Notes under the pieces: generated by a model
Database searches by the model: none
Told to the model about the DNA's origin: nothing
The model's input: only the letters and a program-made list of their open reading frames with translations
UHGV virus genome: UHGV-0144531
Reading direction: 5' to 3' (one strand)
DNA: 33,245 bases
Source of the DNA: a virus
Translations under genes and position numbers: made by a program
Shown: positions 3,104-21,825 of the stretch, one piece after another
Layout: each line of letters starts with the position of its first letter
Numbering within the stretch: the first letter of the stretch is position 1

Positions 3104-3328
3104 ATGATTGAAGAAAAAGAAGTAGATAAGGAAATTCCTGACGGTTGTGATGAGCTTATTTGTTTTGACGGCGGCCTGTATGAGTTCGAAACGTCTGCAG
3201 GGTGGCACGATAAATGGCCTAAGCCTACTCGCCAGGAATTAAGCGACCGTAAATCATTCGGCGAAGATGCCGAACGGCTGGCTAATAACAAATGGCTTGA
3301 TAAGTTAATTGCGGAGGGTGGCAAATGA
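3104..3328 (+). CDS. Hypothetical protein (74 aa)
   Basis: ORF with RBS-like GAGGTG upstream. Confidence 0.5.
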   Translation: MIEEKEVDKEIPDGCDELICFDGGLYEFETSAGWHDKWPKPTRQELSDRKSFGEDAERLANNKWLDKLIAEGGK

Positions 3329-3438
3329 GCTTTGCAAAAATTGCCGCATTGCTTGCGGCTTTATCTATCGCCGTGCTGTATCTCAGTGTATCTCTTTATA
3401 TCACGGTAGCGATCATTAAACTCATTACTAACATGTGA
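3325..3438 (+). CDS. Tiny hydrophobic peptide (37 aa, one predicted TM helix)
   Basis: MSFAKIAALLAALSIAVLYLSVSLYITVAIIKLITNM; ATG overlaps stop of upstream gene; below ORF-track cutoff. Confidence 0.35.
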   Translation: MSFAKIAALLAALSIAVLYLSVSLYITVAIIKLITNM

Positions 3439-3446
3439 GGCCAATC

Positions 3447-3566
3447 ATGAAAGTCGGTAAGGATATTGTGACTGTCGCGTTTTGCATTATTTGCTTCCTG
3501 TTTGTGGTTGTTTCTTGTGGCGCATTTGCTGCGTTGGTTAGCTTTATTTTTAGAGGATTGCCGTGA
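3447..3566 (+). CDS. Tiny hydrophobic peptide (39 aa, one predicted TM helix)
   Basis: MKVGKDIVTVAFCIICFLFVVVSCGAFAALVSFIFRGLP; stop overlaps next ATG. Confidence 0.35.
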   Translation: MKVGKDIVTVAFCIICFLFVVVSCGAFAALVSFIFRGLP

Positions 3567-4988: not shown

Positions 4989-5038
4989 GATCACATAAAT
5001 ATACATTTTGTATTGTAATTGCATATCCATTTTGTAAG
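4989..5038. promoter_or_regulatory. Recurrent motif cluster: GATCACATAAAT plus two direct copies of CATTTTGTA
   Basis: Intergenic; gatcacataaat at 4989-5000, acattttgtatt at 5003-5014, ccattttgtaag at 5027-5038. Confidence 0.45.
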
Positions 5039-5075
5039 CCGAAATCAAAAGGTTTACGGTGCGGAGGAAGCAAAA

Positions 5076-5294
5076 ATGGAACGCGAATTGATGCTTTATT
5101 GCGTAGAAGGTGGCGTAGGTCACGATGCCTACGTCGCTGGGAAAGGCTATCCAGCCGATGAAGTGCTTTCTAATATGCACTTCCGGGAAAATGAAATCAG
5201 GGTGTCTGTGTGGAAACGGTGCATTGATGGTATTGAGGTTGTAAGTATCGAACGGTATTTAGGCACGTTTGATTATGGTGTTATTGAGGCTTAA
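5076..5294 (+). CDS. Hypothetical protein (72 aa)
   Basis: ATG at 5076 with GGAGGA RBS; track start 5019 would run through the motif cluster. Confidence 0.5.
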   Translation: MERELMLYCVEGGVGHDAYVAGKGYPADEVLSNMHFRENEIRVSVWKRCIDGIEVVSIERYLGTFDYGVIEA

Positions 5295-5392
5295 TTATGG
5301 ACGACACATTGTTTTATATGTGCTGTTGCTGGGGTTTTATTGCCTTATGCCTGTTTATTAGGTGGTTTATTGAATACCATATGAGGTGATGC

Positions 5393-5587
5393 ATGGAACA
5401 GGAAACTGATTATAGAATACCTGAAAACCTGAAGTTAGTAGGCATTGGTTTTGGTTGTAGTTTTGTATCTGACGCAAACGGGGCGATTTATTTAGTGCGC
5501 CTCATTGATGGCGTTCAGCATATAAGAAGGCTAGGACTTTACATCAAAGCATTCAGAAGAGGTTATTTAAAAGCTCATGAAGTTTAA
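5393..5587 (+). CDS. Hypothetical protein (64 aa)
   Basis: ORF in co-directional string. Confidence 0.4.
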   Translation: MEQETDYRIPENLKLVGIGFGCSFVSDANGAIYLVRLIDGVQHIRRLGLYIKAFRRGYLKAHEV

Positions 5588-17106: not shown

Positions 17107-17134
17107 ATTTCCTAACAATGCGAAATTGTAATTA

Positions 17135-17157
17135 CCCGGCCCCCGCGCCGGGTTTTT
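17135..17157 (+). terminator. Rho-independent terminator (tR'-like) upstream of the holin gene
   Basis: cccggc-ccccgc-gccggg hairpin followed by ttttt. Confidence 0.6.
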
Positions 17158-17177
17158 GCTTTGTTGGAGGTAAATCT

Positions 17178-17378
17178 ATGTTCGACAGAATACGGGAGGC
17201 GTGCGCGTATGTGACTGGGGCCGTAACTGCTTTTTTCGGCGCGATAACCATCAATGACATTGCCGTCTTTGTGGGTATCTTATCAACCGTAGGCACATTT
17301 GCCGTTAATTATTACTTCAAATCACAGGAGAACAAGCGGGCGCAAGAGGAACACGACGCGCGAATGGGGAATAAGTAA
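17178..17378 (+). CDS. Holin (class II / pinholin-like, 66 aa)
   Basis: ATG 17178 with GGAGG RBS; two hydrophobic helices and charged C-terminus (YYFKSQENKRAQEE) like phage 21-type S; directly precedes the endolysin. Confidence 0.7.
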   Translation: MFDRIREACAYVTGAVTAFFGAITINDIAVFVGILSTVGTFAVNYYFKSQENKRAQEEHDARMGNK

Positions 17379-17867
17379 ATGATTAGCCAATCGCTGAAAA
17401 ACAAGATTGTTGCGGCGGCTGGTGGGGCGATCGCTATTGCGGCGGTGATGATAAAAGATCTTGAAGGCGTTGAGTATAAGCCATACAGAGATGTCATCGG
17501 TGTTTACACGATATGTTATGGACACGTCGGAAAAGACATCATGCTTGGTAAGACTTACACGCAATCAGAATGCGATGCTTTATTAAATAAAGATCTACAC
17601 AAGACCGCAAAAGCGATTGACCCATATATCAAAGTCGAAATATCAGATTTTACCCGCGCAGCACTTTATTCATTCGCCTATAACGTAGGCGCTACCAACT
17701 TCAAAACATCAACCTTACTAAAACTACTCAATGACGGCAAGAAATCAGAAGCGTGCGCACAGCTTAAACGCTGGGTATACGCTGGCGGTAAGAAGTGGCA
17801 AGGCCTGGTAAACCGCCGCGAGGTTGAATATGCCGTTTGCGAATGGGGGGAAACGTGGACAAGGTGA
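17379..17867 (+). CDS. SAR endolysin (T4-lysozyme-like muramidase with N-terminal signal-anchor-release domain)
   Basis: N-terminal Gly/Ala-rich weak TM ([16 protein letters not shown]) followed by catalytic E..D..T triad ([21 protein letters not shown]), as in P21 R and P1 Lyz. Confidence 0.85.
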
Positions 17868-18325
17868 AGGCGTTAATTATCGCCGCTGTTGTTTGCATTA
17901 TTGCCGGACTGACCGCCGTAACATGTTATTACCAGGGTGAGGCGGCAAGGTTACAGGAAGAAGTCACGGTAACGAAAGGCGCACTGAAAACGGCAAGTAA
18001 CACTATTCAGCAGATGAAGGAGCGAAACGCCGAACTGTCAAAACTTGATAAGAGGTATCACGATGAGATTAAAGCTATCAGATCTGACATTGCCGATCTG
18101 CGCACTGGCATTGATAACGGCACTATCAGGCTGCGCGTCAACGCAATACCCGTGCGAGTGTCCGACTCCGCCGAATCCGCCAGCCGCATTGATGGAGCCT
18201 CCTGTAGACTCACTCCCGACGCTGAATCGGCTTATCTATCCCTCAGAGAACAACTAAAAACGAAAGACGCTCAGATTACTGGTCTTCAGGACTACATCAA
18301 AACTCAGTGCTTACGCAAAGAATAA
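17843..18325 (+). CDS. Rz-like i-spanin
   Basis: N-terminal TM helix ([17 protein letters not shown]) then coiled-coil periplasmic domain; embedded Rz1 in +1 frame; start uncertain (ATG 17843 or GTG 17855). Confidence 0.65.
18063..18257 (+). CDS. Rz1-like o-spanin (outer-membrane lipoprotein) embedded in Rz
   Basis: Signal peptide with lipobox (LITALSGC), proline-rich mature region ([17 protein letters not shown]); entirely inside Rz in another frame. Confidence 0.65.
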   Translation: MRLKLSDLTLPICALALITALSGCASTQYPCECPTPPNPPAALMEPPVDSLPTLNRLIYPSENN

Positions 18326-18603
18326 CAGCGCGTGGACGTGTCGCCGTTTCTGCCAGCCAGCCATAACCAGGCCAATCCTTCCCGCGAGCGACGGCGGAAA
18401 TTCAAAAACACGTAATACCGGATCAACAGTCCCATTAACAGGTCAGGCGCTACCTGGGTAGAAGAAAGCGCCACCCACCTATTTTATAAAATTCTGAAAA
18501 CGGTACTCATGCAGCGCCGTTTTTAGTGTTTTATAGCTGTTTTCACTCCCTGCGGTGTCGAGTTTTGCGGGGGTTATATTTTTCAGAATAGGAGATTATT
18601 CTG

Positions 18604-19146
18604 ATGGCTAAGGCTAAAGGCATTAAGTTGCCTCACTTCAAGATCCCGCTTTTTGAGCATACCACTGTTTTCTTTTGCCCGACCCGCGAGATGTTCTATG
18701 AATTTTGCGAAAAGGCAGGAATTCCGATTGAACCTGATTTCGAGTTGGCTGGAGGATTAACGCTTACTTGCACTGGCGAGAATGGTGGTAACTTCTACGT
18801 GATCGCAGTATTCAACAATGAGTTGGGAACGCTGGTCCATGAATGCGCCCACACTACATTCCACGTTTTAAGTGATGTAGGCGTCGTGGCTACCACGGAT
18901 CCTACCCATCCGGCGAATGAGACTTACGCTTACATGGTAGACCGTATCTTCGATGCGTTTTTCCCTATCATAGCAGAATCAAACGAAGCACAGGTTGCAG
19001 CAATGCAGGCGGCAGAAGTCGTCGATCAGGCGCTGGAACAGGCAGAACAGCCGAAGGAAGAGGAAAAACCCGCGAAGAAAGGCAAACGTAAGCCCAAAGC
19101 AAAAGAAGCGTATGTGCCGCGCGTAATGAGCTTTAAACGAGGCTGA
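18604..19146 (+). CDS. Hypothetical protein with HExxH motif and Lys-rich C-terminal tail (180 aa)
   Basis: GTLVHECAHTTFH with Glu about 22 residues downstream (gluzincin-like spacing); tail EEEKPAKKGKRKPKAKE; GGAG RBS sits in the loop of a 7-bp hairpin (cagaata/tattctg). Confidence 0.55.
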   Translation: MAKAKGIKLPHFKIPLFEHTTVFFCPTREMFYEFCEKAGIPIEPDFELAGGLTLTCTGENGGNFYVIAVFNNELGTLVHECAHTTFHVLSDVGVVATTDPTHPANETYAYMVDRIFDAFFPIIAESNEAQVAAMQAAEVVDQALEQAEQPKEEEKPAKKGKRKPKAKEAYVPRVMSFKRG

Positions 19147-19148
19147 TT

Positions 19149-19238
19149 ATGGTTGCGTCAATATTAACGTTTATGGGTGGCGTGGCGTTCGGATTCATTA
19201 TTTGCCTGTTTATGGTGATTATGTCTATGCGAGGCTGA
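19149..19238 (+). CDS. Tiny hydrophobic peptide 1 (29 aa)
   Basis: MVASILTFMGGVAFGFIICLFMVIMSMRG; GAGG RBS; ATG overlaps upstream stop. Confidence 0.3.
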   Translation: MVASILTFMGGVAFGFIICLFMVIMSMRG

Positions 19239-19240
19239 TT

Positions 19241-19336
19241 ATGGACGCTTACATCATCGCCGGATTAATTGGTATTTCTGTATTTCTGGTGAGTTTTGTT
19301 ATTGCCGTACTGATAACCGTAAAAAGCAAGTATTAG
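19241..19336 (+). CDS. Tiny hydrophobic peptide 2 (31 aa)
   Basis: MDAYIIAGLIGISVFLVSFVIAVLITVKSKY; same cgaggctgattATGg junction as peptide 1. Confidence 0.3.
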   Translation: MDAYIIAGLIGISVFLVSFVIAVLITVKSKY

Positions 19337-19349
19337 ATGGGGTGGCAAG

Positions 19350-19424
19350 ATGATTGACCCGCTAATTATCCTTTCTGCCTGCGTCGCTGTATGGCTGGCG
19401 ATCATGATATTCATTGAAAGCTGA
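19350..19424 (+). CDS. Tiny hydrophobic peptide 3 (24 aa)
   Basis: MIDPLIILSACVAVWLAIMIFIES; G-rich RBS-like sequence upstream. Confidence 0.3.
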   Translation: MIDPLIILSACVAVWLAIMIFIES

Positions 19425-19517
19425 AGGTATTCACCATAAATATTTACGATCTCATCTGGTGGTCGTTGGTCGCCGTCATTATCTATTTCTGGTGGAAGAA
19501 TGTTGTATAGGTGAAGC

Positions 19518-19598
19518 ATGAACGCATACGAAATGCTATTGCTGGTGGCTGTTATTACAGTTATTGCCGTAGATGTTTATCGAGGGTTTAAAAGATGA
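19518..19598 (+). CDS. Tiny hydrophobic peptide 4 (26 aa)
   Basis: MNAYEMLLLVAVITVIAVDVYRGFKR; AGGTGA RBS. Confidence 0.3.
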   Translation: MNAYEMLLLVAVITVIAVDVYRGFKR

Positions 19599-19666
19599 GA
19601 GAAGCAGACTTCTTTTGCATGATTATAGTGATTGTCATCGTTGCGGTGCTTTTAAGTGTTAACTGA
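19595..19666 (+). CDS. Tiny hydrophobic peptide 5 (23 aa)
   Basis: MREADFFCMIIVIVIVAVLLSVN; ATGA overlap with peptide 4. Confidence 0.25.
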   Translation: MREADFFCMIIVIVIVAVLLSVN

Positions 19667-19683
19667 ATCGCAGGGGGTTAAAA

Positions 19684-19752
19684 ATGAAATGGCTTGATTT
19701 CTTTTTCCTGGTTGTCGCGATTGTTCTCACTATGGCGGCCTTGTCGCAGTAA
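19684..19752 (+). CDS. Tiny hydrophobic peptide 6 (22 aa)
   Basis: MKWLDFFFLVVAIVLTMAALSQ; strong AGGGGG RBS. Confidence 0.3.
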   Translation: MKWLDFFFLVVAIVLTMAALSQ

Positions 19753-19761
19753 GGCGAAAAG

Positions 19762-19848
19762 ATGAAAGAATTATTCGACTTTCTGGAAACAGCAACATAC
19801 TGCGCAACATTAATTGCGTGTTTATATATTCTGTGTAAATGGTTTTAA
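19762..19848 (+). CDS. Tiny hydrophobic peptide 7 (28 aa)
   Basis: MKELFDFLETATYCATLIACLYILCKWF; AAGG RBS. Confidence 0.3.
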   Translation: MKELFDFLETATYCATLIACLYILCKWF

Positions 19849-19858
19849 GAGGTGAAAT

Positions 19859-20344
19859 ATGGCCCGCACGAAAAAGGCAAAGGCTGAAGACAAAAAGCCA
19901 GCAGCCAAAAAGGTGGGCCGTCCACATGGCTATTCAGAAGAAAAGGCATTGGAGATCTGCGAGCTTGTGTCGGACGGCGAAAGCATTAACAAAATTTCGA
20001 AGATGCCTGGTATGCCTGCACGTTCAACAATCCTTAAGTGGTTCAGAGACGTGCCAGAGTTTTCGGACATGTATATGCGCGCGAAGGAGATCGGATTCGA
20101 GGTGTTAGCTGATGAGATCATCGACCTTGCTGACGCGCCAGAGAACATCAAAAAGGAAGAACTGAACAGACACCATTTGATGATTGAAACGCGCAAATGG
20201 CTATTGGCAAAACTGCAACCTCGTAAATATGGTGAACGCGTCACACAGGAAATCGTAGGCAACAGGGAAGAGTCGCCCGTACAGGTGGAAGTAACGAAAG
20301 AAGAAATTGCACGCATCGTTCAGGAAGTAGAAAACGAGGTGTAA
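19859..20344 (+). CDS. Terminase small subunit
   Basis: Basic N-terminus, HTH-like segment (GRPHGYSEEKALEICELVSDGESINKISK) and position directly upstream of the large terminase. Confidence 0.7.
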   Translation: MARTKKAKAEDKKPAAKKVGRPHGYSEEKALEICELVSDGESINKISKMPGMPARSTILKWFRDVPEFSDMYMRAKEIGFEVLADEIIDLADAPENIKKEELNRHHLMIETRKWLLAKLQPRKYGERVTQEIVGNREESPVQVEVTKEEIARIVQEVENEV

Positions 20345-20346
20345 TT

Positions 20347-21825
20347 ATGTTGACAATCAGAGAACGAATTATTCAGTCCAAATGTGAAAACGATGGCCTG
20401 TTTTTTAATCGCTACTTTTACAAGCAAGCGAACGGGACGAAGATGTTAATCTCAGGCCATCATTTAGCTATCCGCGACGCACTGCAACGCGTTATCAAAG
20501 GTGAGATAACCCGACTCATCATCAACATCCCCCCAGGGTACGGCAAAACCATGATCGCAACTATCAATATGATGGCGCGGTCACTCGCAATAAATCCCCG
20601 CACAAGATTCCTTCACGTTTCCTATTCCAACAACCTTGCGTTACTCAACTCCTCGACTGTAAGGAACATGATCTGTACGCCTGACTATCAGGCGATGTGG
20701 CCCATGAAGATCCGCAACGATGCCAACAGTAAATCGATGTGGTGGACTGAATACGGCGGCGGCGTGTATGCAACGTCATCACTTGGTCAGGTGACCGGGT
20801 TCCGTGCGGGGTACATGGAATCAGGATTTAATGGCGCGTTAATCATCGACGACCCATTAAAACCCGCTGACGCTTACTCTGACGTGGTGAGAAAGCAGGT
20901 GAACACCAACTATAACGATACGCTTGCATCGCGTCTGGCAGTGCAAACAACGCCTGTTATCGTCATCATGCAGCGCATCCACTACGATGATTTGTCCGGC
21001 TACCTGTTACGCGGCGGCAGTGGTGAAAAGTGGTATCACCTTAACCTGCCAGTGAAGATCGACAACAGCCTGGATTATTGGGATCTGTACCCTGAAAACG
21101 AGTTCGCCATTCCTATCGCTCACAACCTGCCGGACGGCTGGCTATGGCCTAAAAAACACAATGACACCCATGAAGCCGGACTGAAGGCGCACAGACGGTC
21201 ATTTGAAGCCCAGTACATGCAGCGCCCGCGTAAATTCGACGAAGAAGGCGCATTGTGGACTGAAGCAATGATAACCGCAGCACACCGAATGCAGATAACG
21301 CAGGAGAAAATCCGCACTGTGATAGCCATTGACCCGGCGACAACATCATCTGATGAGTCGGACGAAACGGGGATCATGGCATGTTCCGCTTATGGTGGTG
21401 GCAAGAATGCTCAGTATTCTGTTGATGGCGACTATTCAGGCCGTATGTCACCTAACGACTGGGCGCAGGCATCAATGAACGCCTACAACATCCATGAAGC
21501 TGACGCGATGGTTATCGAAACCAACCAGGGTGGTGATATGGCAGAGGCCACACTACGCAATGCCGGATTCAAAGGCCGCATTGTTAAGGTGCACGCAAGT
21601 AAAGGTAAATTCGCCCGCGCTGAACCAATATCGGCACTGTATGCACAAGGAAGGGTGGCACACACTGGTGAGCTATACACGCTGGAAAATCAAATGATGG
21701 AATACGTGCCAGCTACCGCCAAAAAATCCCCTGACCGTATGGACGCAATGGTATGGGGTATCACCGAACTAAGCCAGCCACAGGCAATGGGCCTTATGTT
21801 ACCTAAGCGCCTGCGCGGATTTTAA
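20347..21825 (+). CDS. Terminase large subunit
   Basis: 492 aa; Walker A-like PPGYGKT; acidic motifs in C-terminal nuclease region (AIDPA, ETNQGGDM); position. Confidence 0.9.
   Translation: MLTIRERIIQSKCENDGLFFNRYFYKQANGTKMLISGHHLAIRDALQRVIKGEITRLIINIPPGYGKTMIATINMMARSLAINPRTRFLHVSYSNNLALLNSSTVRNMICTPDYQAMWPMKIRNDANSKSMWWTEYGGGVYATSSLGQVTGFRAGYMESGFNGALIIDDPLKPADAYSDVVRKQVNTNYNDTLASRLAVQTTPVIVIMQRIHYDDLSGYLLRGGSGEKWYHLNLPVKIDNSLDYWDLYPENEFAIPIAHNLPDGWLWPKKHNDTHEAGLKAHRRSFEAQYMQRPRKFDEEGALWTEAMITAAHRMQITQEKIRTVIAIDPATTSSDESDETGIMACSAYGGGKNAQYSVDGDYSGRMSPNDWAQASMNAYNIHEADAMVIETNQGGDMAEATLRNAGFKGRIVKVHASKGKFARAEPISALYAQGRVAHTGELYTLENQMMEYVPATAKKSPDRMDAMVWGITELSQPQAMGLMLPKRLRGF

Follow-up and report, generated by a model that had tools for sequence, protein, structure and literature searches.

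Bacterial proteins of the AcrZ, MgtS, MgrB, PmrR, KdpF and CydX class measure 20–50 amino acids (aa), bind larger membrane proteins and are often left unannotated. Type I toxins (Ibs, ShoB, TisB, DinQ, Ldr, Hok) are likewise short, very hydrophobic and membrane-inserting, and sometimes lie in tandem. Phages encode small membrane proteins of their own, some of them beside lysis genes, among which are HK97 gp15, T4 Imm, LysF1b, LysA2b and T4 RI, the last being a lysis regulator with a single transmembrane domain (TMD). Bacteriocins of Gram-positive bacteria such as aureocin A70, garvicin KS and the cereucins consist of two to four paralogous, leaderless and unmodified peptides of about 30 aa, whose genes are arranged head to tail. 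The coat protein of phage Pf3 combines an acidic N-terminal tail, one transmembrane (TM) helix and a basic C-terminal tail, and its N-out insertion depends on YidC and the proton-motive force (PMF). Single-TM regulators, toxins, exclusion proteins and lysis regulators are individually well studied; bacterial small membrane proteins are the subject of reviews (PMC12648545 and PMC11539335, both in excerpt), and hydrophobic microproteins are known in bulk from surveys such as the 'Cryptic Bacterial Microproteome' (PMC11188072, in excerpt, citing Fremin et al. 2022). Here we analyse UHGV-0144531, a virus genome of 33,245 nucleotides (nt; the window, meaning this whole stretch), which derives from a temperate Escherichia coli siphophage of the Nus-dependent, non-lambdoid mEp021 ('mEpimmI') group. 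Between a gene for a protein with an HExxH motif and the gene for the small terminase subunit (TerS), a gap of 700 base pairs (bp) is, as judged from sequence comparison, a dense array of genuine protein-coding micro-genes, seven of them intact and one start-defective.

Like members of the AcrZ class, the array peptides comprise a single TM helix and little else, and have no signal peptide. Unlike those proteins, which are encoded by single, dispersed and individually regulated chromosomal genes, they derive from 2–12 paralogous genes in a predicted phage late operon, within an array that undergoes cassette-level turnover, and Pfam and NCBIfam searches reveal no sequence relationship. They resemble type I toxins in length, hydrophobicity, presumed membrane insertion and tandem arrangement, but differ from them in their acidic N-termini and operon coupling, and no antisense RNA partner or family match was found. 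HK97 gp15, T4 Imm, T4 RI and LysF1b/LysA2b are products of single genes, typically 55–100 aa or longer and equipped with soluble domains; none forms a variable array, and PHROG and tblastn searches gave no homology with the array peptides. Among known systems, multi-peptide leaderless bacteriocins come closest in genetic architecture, but they are cationic, amphipathic and exported by ABC transporters to kill other cells, whereas the array peptides are far more hydrophobic, have acidic heads and no transporter, and belong to a phage of Gram-negative bacteria. The likeness to Pf3 coat, a 44-aa virion protein of a filamentous phage, is one of topology only and implies neither homology nor a structural role. 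The survey microproteins share with the array conserved small open reading frames (ORFs) under purifying selection, mostly hydrophobic, often co-directional and of unknown function; that survey is a bulk catalogue, and its searched text contains neither prophages nor tandem repeats and mentions 'arrays' twice in passing, in neither case this one (PMC11188072, in excerpt). The literature found describes no late operon with such a dense array, in which as many as twelve genes for bare TM helices follow one another in a fixed order but varying selection and a cassette is transferred across phage lineages.

The array fills a 712-bp stretch on the plus strand that runs from the HExxH gene to TerS (Table 1). 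An original prediction, made from the letters alone, had proposed seven consecutive ORFs of 22–31 codons between the lysis cassette and terminase, and all seven were recovered exactly as described. A Shine–Dalgarno-like (SD-like) motif lies 3–8 nt upstream of every ATG, the genes occupy three frames, one ATGA overlap (F/G at 19595) accompanies gaps of otherwise 2–17 nt, and each peptide has one hydrophobic core (Kyte–Doolittle 15-residue maximum of 1.95–3.61 across the seven); no plus-strand ORF of 60 aa or more exists in the gap. The placement of the array was also borne out, with holin, endolysin, Rz/Rz1 and the HExxH gene upstream and an Sf6-type TerS downstream. The number seven is correct for this phage but understates the system, which in relatives comprises 19 families with 2–12 members per phage. 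An eighth hydrophobic frame had been noted as lacking a canonical start: it is open from 19418, and an ATA at 19436 with an intact SD opens the coding sequence of INIYDLIWWSLVAVIIYFWWKNVV. This frame is family D, which in relatives reads MNIYDLIWWSLVAVIIYFWWKNVV; its start codon is ATG in 45 of 46 related copies, the window being the sole exception, and its ratio of non-synonymous to synonymous change (pN/pS) is 0.29. The start codon was thus lost recently in this phage, and cassette D, one of six defective copies among the 588 described below, is probably silent here or translated at a very low level. In base composition the region is rich in T (35% T, 15% C). We counted ORFs of 22–60 codons with ATG, an SD-like motif and a 15-residue Kyte–Doolittle maximum of at least 1.9, in the region and in 2000 dinucleotide-preserving shuffles of it: seven were observed against a shuffle mean of 0.09 and a maximum of 2 (mean 0.53 and maximum 4 when no SD was required). 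By the same criteria, the plus strand of the 33-kb genome has four such ORFs outside the region, and the minus strand lacks them altogether.

Table 1. Mini-genes of the array, their junction motifs and the neighbouring late genes (positions in the window)
Feature	Position	Strand	Remarks
Mini-gene A, 29 aa, MVASILTFMGGVAFGFIICLFMVIMSMRG	19149–19238	+	GAGG SD; start 2 nt past HExxH stop
Mini-gene B, 31 aa, MDAYIIAGLIGISVFLVSFVIAVLITVKSKY	19241–19336	+	TM helix between acidic N-terminus and basic C-terminus
Mini-gene C, 24 aa, MIDPLIILSACVAVWLAIMIFIES	19350–19424	+	Core cassette
Cassette D, 24 codons, (I)NIYDLIWWSLVAVIIYFWWKNVV	19436–19510	+	ATA in place of ATG; GAAGG SD kept
Mini-gene F, 26 aa, MNAYEMLLLVAVITVIAVDVYRGFKR	19518–19598	+	Core cassette; paralogous to N and to D
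Mini-gene G, 23 aa, MREADFFCMIIVIVIVAVLLSVN	19595–19666	+	ATGA overlap with F stop
Mini-gene H, 22 aa, MKWLDFFFLVVAIVLTMAALSQ	19684–19752	+	Core cassette
Mini-gene M, 28 aa, MKELFDFLETATYCATLIACLYILCKWF	19762–19848	+	Core cassette, always last; ends 10 nt before TerS ATG
Junction motif CGAGGCTGA (SD + stop)	19138–19146	+	End of HExxH gene
Junction motif CGAGGCTGA, copy	19230–19238	+	End of A; forms a direct repeat with the first copy, on either side of cassette A
Class II holin	17118 or 17178 to 17378	+	The phage's own holin
Endolysin	17379–17867	+	
Rz	17837–18325	+	Rz1 embedded at 18045–18257
Terminator-like hairpin, AAAACGG...CCGTTTTT	18497–18524	+	Between Rz and HExxH gene; computed fold
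HExxH protein, 180 aa (phrog_1365)	18604–19146	+	Upstream neighbour, context only
Small terminase subunit TerS, Sf6 type	19859–20344	+	PF20901, E = 1.9e-36; phrog_1482
Large terminase	20347–21825	+	

For the comparison with relatives, the interval from the HExxH stop to the TerS start was collected from 67 loci (318–1154 bp), namely the window, seven phage records, 14 E. coli prophages (drawn from 35 found among 5426 complete genomes) and 45 IMG/VR contigs; two more divergent contigs were added after this set. The records closest to the window are mEp044, mEp554, mEp010, mEp013, mEp021, mEp515 and MagusPhagus. All 67 intervals are filled with mini-ORFs of the same kind, which were sorted into 19 peptide families (A, A2, A2b, A3, A4, B, N, C, D, O, E, F, G, H, I, J, K, L and M), and assigned mini-ORFs take up a median of 84% of the interval, a normal coding density for a phage. 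The 588 cassette copies include 578 with ATG, 583 with a canonical start and 587 that are untruncated. Since frames, starts and lengths are conserved in the 67 loci, these are separate small genes and not a frameshifted pseudogene. Variable sites are distributed as 132/91/243 over codon positions one to three (chi-square p = 5e-18). Pooled pN/pS in the proposed frames is 0.224, with families ranging from 0.07 (M, the lowest, present in 62 of the 67 loci) to 0.39 (A2), whereas the remaining sense frames yield 1.03 and 1.50, so that a proposed check on conservation and on synonymous versus non-synonymous change came out in favour of coding. Among the other families of the window, B is found in 59 loci, all with ATG and with a C-terminal tail of varying length (31–38 aa; pN/pS 0.27); C in 64, all with ATG and 24 codons (0.27; 16 peptides from 30 distinct DNA sequences); F in 65, all with ATG (0.26); G in 24, all with ATG and 23 codons (0.25); and H in 62, all with ATG (0.16). 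Cassette A is a variable head cassette of 15 arrays, always with ATG and 29 codons (0.27). Chance ORFs in T-rich DNA were rejected in view of the shuffles (0.09 versus 7) and of in-frame purifying selection.

A minus-strand ORF of 84 aa at 19265–19519 had been named as a rival to the plus-strand genes. Outside the window, no more than a few loci keep this ORF whole; stop codons or frame breaks disrupt it in most relatives, and it was rejected as the real gene. In one prophage (locus L022, E. coli O157:H7 LSU61) the Prokaryotic Genome Annotation Pipeline (PGAP) calls a 129-aa 'hypothetical protein' on the minus strand at 1008–1397, over the start of the array; this is probably no real gene but a shadow ORF cast by the hydrophobic mini-genes on the plus strand. 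Otherwise PGAP and the curated mEp021 record annotate almost nothing in the array interval. Among the few small ORFs that PGAP does annotate there is a soluble, acidic 47-aa ORF, MNDEELKIADEIRKALDSAENNETIYLSEQEVEKMMNEFKLRFGKDN, an extra ORF that ends the array just before TerS in some loci (L020 at 1724–1867, L021 at 1920–2063, and L045).

The order of the cassettes is strictly colinear, with no violation in the 67 loci. Arrays contain 2–12 cassettes (median 9) in 44 distinct presence/absence architectures, built on the core families F, C, H, M and B, while the rest are accessory. The commonest distance from a stop codon to the next ATG is -4 (ATGA, 112 cases), followed by +8 (72), +11 (51) and -8 (38), the remainder lying mostly between +1 and +18. 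SD motifs precede nearly all copies and are often fused with the stop codon of the preceding gene, as in TAGGTGA at 19508, which serves as D stop and F SD. Composition-controlled alignments between the families gave paralogy z-scores of 10.9 (F–N), 9.7 (G–K), 8.8 (A2–A2b) and 8.1 (A2–A3), with lower values for G–H (6.5), H–K (5.7), D–O (5.0) and D–F (4.0), which points to at least three sub-groups that arose by tandem duplication and divergence. The nucleotide identity of cassettes to the window is uncorrelated with that of their flanks (Spearman -0.5 to +0.25): cassette C averages 96.6%, and the flanking genes 84–89%. On the contig whose HExxH protein is only 60% identical, the C and M peptides are 100% identical to the commonest variants elsewhere, and the C peptide is also identical to the window copy. 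Because cassette identity is independent of the flanks, the array is best described as a mosaic exchanged by in-register recombination. From these alignments, it is a modular and partly paralogous family of 19 types, with gain, loss and exchange of cassettes at conserved junctions.

Cassette A links this phage group to an unrelated one. Together with its junctions (about 95–100 bp), A is 90–95% identical in nucleotide sequence to a segment found in roughly 90 genomes of rV5-like phages (Vequintavirus). It is intact as a 29-codon ORF between two annotated genes in rV5, FV3, ECP26, BP9 and SYGMH1, and is unannotated in all rV5-type records inspected. A base-by-base comparison of the copies in rV5, FV3, ECP26 and BP9 with the window shows changes at the first and third codon positions but none at the second, and the resulting substitutions are conservative. 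Homology between the two phage groups begins and ends at the CGAGGCTGA junction on both sides of A, which points to acquisition by recombination at short SD/stop junction repeats. The transcription units of rV5 include one spanning genes 82–163 and a late unit of genes 27–66, and a candidate holin with two TMDs has been described (PMC3606486). A belongs to the unit 82–163 rather than to the late one; the candidate holin lies about 2 kb upstream of it, and the lysin is elsewhere. A self-contained gene of 90 bp has been kept whole by two phage lineages that share a host but are unrelated, and this speaks for A having a function that is autonomous and directed at the host. An exact DNA pattern search for A in IMG/VR returned only two more contigs, both of the mEp type. 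About ten records labelled 'Campylobacter phage' (MG0656xx; C5, A141, D1 and others) carry the rV5-type A at 92–94% identity and match rV5-like phages in genome size; these Campylobacter jejuni-labelled records look like Vequintavirus coliphage genomes under a Campylobacter label.

The peptides share a simple anatomy. A net-negative N-terminal heptad is present in 15 of the 19 family consensus sequences, typically as M-x-x-x-[D/E] followed by hydrophobic residues, whereas C-termini are mostly neutral or basic (for instance KSKY, YRGFKR, KNVV and KEAKQRFKGKQ). Uncharged stretches measure 13–27 aa in the window peptides, and small-xxx-small motifs occur in several families. By the Kyte–Doolittle scale and simple Hessa sums (with approximate scale values), the peptides have what defines a single-pass small membrane protein, namely one hydrophobic segment long enough to cross a bilayer and little else; the Hessa sums are negative for A, B, C, G and H, clearly favouring insertion for the first four and being borderline for H. 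Under the positive-inside rule, acidic N-termini and neutral or basic C-termini predict a single-pass N-out/C-in topology. The N-termini, being acidic or neutral, offer no positive n-region of a signal peptide, and no lipobox or AxA site characteristic of lipoproteins or secreted peptides was found. A possible lipobox in C (LSAC) was rejected, as the motif reads LSLC in several relatives (L012, L017, L021).

Searches for known families agreed with the view that the array was not recognisable: there was no match in the family libraries and no description in the searchable literature, where the mini-peptide sequences do not occur; the genomics paper on the mEpimmI phages contains neither 'transmembrane' nor 'small ORF' and does not discuss the interval. 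Pfam, PHROG, NCBIfam and PADLOC gave nothing significant. The best family match was that of A with phrog_6302 (E = 8.5e-4), a family of unknown function, while the best holin match (phrog_920, E = 0.04) and a match to an Rz-like spanin (E = 0.64) both concerned the 47-aa L peptide, which is absent from the window. With a single hydrophobic segment each and no significant PHROG or Pfam holin match, the peptides do not resemble holins or antiholins. Known type I toxin families (Hok/Gef, Ldr, Ibs, TisB, ShoB and others) in Pfam and NCBIfam, and the defence and exclusion models of PADLOC, gave no match at E up to 1. By tblastn against 50,697 phage records, B, L and M were found in the mEp021 group only, phmmer with B against 1.84 billion representative proteins returned four matches, all of the same family, and TerS scans of GTDB species-representative genomes found no relatives in other species. 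Rfam contains no relevant RNA family for 18200–20000. A consensus scan predicted no sigma-70-like promoter in 17282–20203, which covers the HExxH gene and the whole array, and only weak terminator-like sites lie within the array ORFs. A simple scan of the minus strand, itself a weak negative, gave no promoter-like site or antisense small RNA (sRNA) gene in the scanned region. The genes therefore do not have the appearance of type I toxin/antisense pairs, nor of autonomous morons with their own promoter and terminator, although the location is a typical moron hot spot.

Taken together, we consider with a probability of roughly 0.8 that the array consists of real, translationally coupled genes of the late operon, which encode single-pass inner-membrane micropeptides and form a modular battery directed at host membrane targets. 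A late transcript would run through holin, endolysin, Rz/Rz1, a read-through terminator, the HExxH gene, the array and terminase, in keeping with the position of the array on the same strand as, and contiguous with, the lysis and packaging genes, and with the hairpin upstream of the HExxH gene. The mini-genes would be translated serially through tight coupling at stop/SD/start junctions and ATGA overlaps, and their products would insert into the E. coli inner membrane as single-pass helices in the N-out/C-in orientation of Pf3 coat. Once there, they may act one by one on inner-membrane components of the host or of competitors, much as small-membrane-protein regulators do, rather than as subunits bound to one phage-specific partner. 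Such individual action is suggested by the free variation of cassettes between near-identical phages and by the presence of A in an unrelated virulent phage. Candidate ends would be the timing of lysis, the exclusion of other phages and the neutralisation of membrane-embedded defence effectors.

Several points weigh against this proposal. With the same pipeline, the flanking essential genes have pN/pS values of 0.12 (TerS) and 0.09 (HExxH gene), so that the ratio of the mini-genes is about twice as high; the micro-genes are constrained, but somewhat less so than their neighbours. One antisense frame also has a low pN/pS (0.34), and this ratio alone leaves the strand unfixed; however, such a value is expected where the antisense wobble position coincides with the sense wobble and is no evidence for antisense coding, and it is the conservation of ATG, SD and stop codon on the plus strand, together with the broken minus-strand ORFs, that identifies the coding strand. 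With the fixed window lengths that were tried, the Hessa sums of D, F and M are marginal to unfavourable, and F and M have charged residues near or in the helix, so that membrane insertion is predicted with unequal strength across the eight peptides. A literature search found no ribosome profiling (Ribo-seq) or peptidomics data on these ORFs. The claim of exclusively late-operon expression relies on a simple consensus scan and on gene order, and that of host targets mainly on a single cassette, A, and on the variable presence of cassettes. Instead of acting individually, the five core peptides might form a hetero-oligomeric complex.

Among the roles that the peptides could fulfil, the modulation of lysis timing ranks first, if only tentatively. 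The peptides would then be antiholin-like or co-holin factors with a single TMD that act on the class II holin or on the PMF and advance or delay triggering. Their genes follow holin, endolysin and Rz/Rz1 in the same presumed late transcript, cassette A of rV5 shares a transcription unit with the only candidate 2-TMD holin of that phage, and excerpts on mycobacteriophages D29 and F1 describe single-TMD lysis regulators in the form of the 1-TMD proteins LysA2b and LysF1b. However, between lysis cassette and array lie the HExxH gene and a terminator-like hairpin, nine to twelve paralogs that come and go freely among near-identical phages are unlike a tuned timing device, A also serves a phage with an unrelated lysis system (rV5), and no lysis family of PHROG was matched significantly.

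Superinfection exclusion or immunity, in which the peptides would block DNA entry of other phages through inner-membrane injection components, as HK97 gp15 and T4 Imm do, is possible but rather unlikely. Temperate coliphages classically carry accessory 'moron' genes in the interval between lysis genes and terminase, the cassettes vary strongly in presence and absence, one of them has moved horizontally between phages of the same host, and small TM peptides are suited to binding TM domains. Nevertheless, no promoter is predicted that would allow expression in the lysogen, expression in the late phase would come late for exclusion, and there is no similarity to PADLOC models; the mEpimmI phages, moreover, already possess characterised exclusion lipoproteins and repressor immunity (PMC11893012). 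We accord comparably low odds to two novel readings, which include the neutralisation of defence effectors. In the first, the array would be a toolkit of decoy TM helices, each intercalating into a different membrane-embedded machine, such as pore-forming abortive-infection effectors triggered by late phage proteins or the DNA-entry channels of rival phages, with cassettes shuffled in an arms race even across unrelated lineages such as rV5. In the second, the five core peptides B, C, F, H and M would form a hetero-oligomeric pore, a lysis or PMF-control device of a new type.

Membrane depolarisation by type I toxin-like peptides is doubtful; by dissipating the membrane potential, they would kill the host or halt its growth, whether to shut it off or in the manner of addiction modules. 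In size and hydrophobicity the peptides are close to Ibs, ShoB, TisB, DinQ and Ldr, and type I toxin genes are also known as tandem repeats (PMC2887945, in excerpt). Against this, the toxin searches were negative even at the most permissive threshold used, the Rfam search came back empty, neither an antisense promoter nor an sRNA signal was found, and the genes are chained by translational coupling in a long operon instead of being individually repressed units.

A peptide-processing module, in which the mini-peptides would be substrates or partners of the adjacent HExxH protein, is improbable. Residues H79, E80, H83 and E106 of this protein are unchanged in 16 homologs, it ends in a lysine-rich disordered tail, and it is predicted to adopt a small zincin/SprT-like fold. 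Pfam gave no match for it; one database source labels a 60%-identical homolog 'PolyVal metallopeptidase', and Foldseek matches it to small proteins without characterised function from many unrelated phages, a few of which bear the name SprT-like or metalloprotease. In favour of a module, the first mini-gene always starts 2 nt past the HExxH stop, the catalytic motif is invariant, and the pairing of HExxH gene and array persists in the most divergent relatives (60–71% identity). Yet proteins of this fold are common in unrelated phages, from which no comparable array is reported (the flanks of those genes being unexamined), an HNH endonuclease separates the HExxH gene from the array in mEp013, A sits behind an unrelated gene in rV5, and the mini-peptides have no leader or cleavage-site features; the first three of these points make the module unlikely. 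Least probable of all is that no functional peptides exist, the ORFs being chance products of a T-rich spacer, upstream ORFs that tune terminase expression by translation itself or, in a variant, the shadow of a real minus-strand gene at 19265–19519, a view to which the hydrophobic codons favoured by the base composition, the near-empty annotation and the 84-aa ORF of the window lend some colour, but which is largely refuted by purifying selection on amino acids in every family, the retention of canonical starts (583 of 588) and lengths (587 of 588), the shuffles, the broken minus-strand ORF, the strong SD of TerS itself, whose ATG lies 10 nt past the M stop, and the conservation of A in a different genomic setting in rV5-like phages.

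The array bears on annotation as well as on phage biology. Eight cassettes here and up to twelve in relatives go uncalled by standard pipelines: in dozens of E. coli prophages, a stretch of 0.5–1.1 kb is left empty by PGAP, and the mini-genes are likewise missing from the curated mEp021 record and from every rV5-type record examined. The locus is a concrete case for lower ORF-length cut-offs in phage annotation. These are genes under selection, without a known family, in a tractable phage group that infects E. coli K-12. The ordered, modular array and the sharing of one cassette by temperate siphoviruses and virulent myoviruses suggest self-contained functional units that act on the host membrane, and the array would constitute a compact natural library on bare transmembrane micropeptides in infection. 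Should the decoy-helix toolkit be true, bare TM helices would constitute a hitherto unknown class of factors for anti-defence or for competition between phages.

Some features of the surrounding late region deserve mention. The 280-bp non-coding gap between Rz and the HExxH gene (18326–18603) folds somewhat better than shuffles (z = -2.0), and in relatives tiny coding sequences are called there by PHANOTATE and Pharokka. Equivalents of the strong hairpin at 18497–18524 are annotated as terminators in mEp021 and mEp013, and the hairpin suggests a late transcript with antiterminated read-through. A second GC-rich terminator-like hairpin, at 17134–17153, lies within the 5' end of the longest holin ORF (17118–17378); in relatives the holin is annotated as 66 aa, which corresponds to a start at ATG 17178 with the terminator just upstream. 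By analogy, this region resembles a late control of the lambda pR'-tR' kind. Genes for HNH homing-type endonucleases are inserted at differing points of the late region in some relatives. In mEp013 (L006) one occupies 2025–2510, and the junction sequence of the HExxH 3' end recurs after it; in another locus (L071) one lies at 1752–2273, between endolysin and Rz.

Mini-ORFs of a similar kind are found in the early region of the window. Two consecutive, SD-preceded single-TM mini-ORFs on the plus strand, of 37 aa (MSFAKIAALLAALSIAVLYLSVSLYITVAIIKLITNM, 3325–3438) and 39 aa (MKVGKDIVTVAFCIICFLFVVVSCGAFAALVSFIFRGLP, 3447–3566), exactly fill a gap between longer ORFs, and their DNA is 88–92% conserved in six of six mEp phages; near the equivalent position, mEp021 annotates a 'putative toxin-antitoxin system subunit' and a terminator. 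A further hydrophobic mini-ORF of 30 aa (MDDTLFYMCCCWGFIALCLFIRWFIEYHMR, 5297–5389, plus strand) exactly fills the gap between the ORFs at 5019–5294 and 5393–5587.

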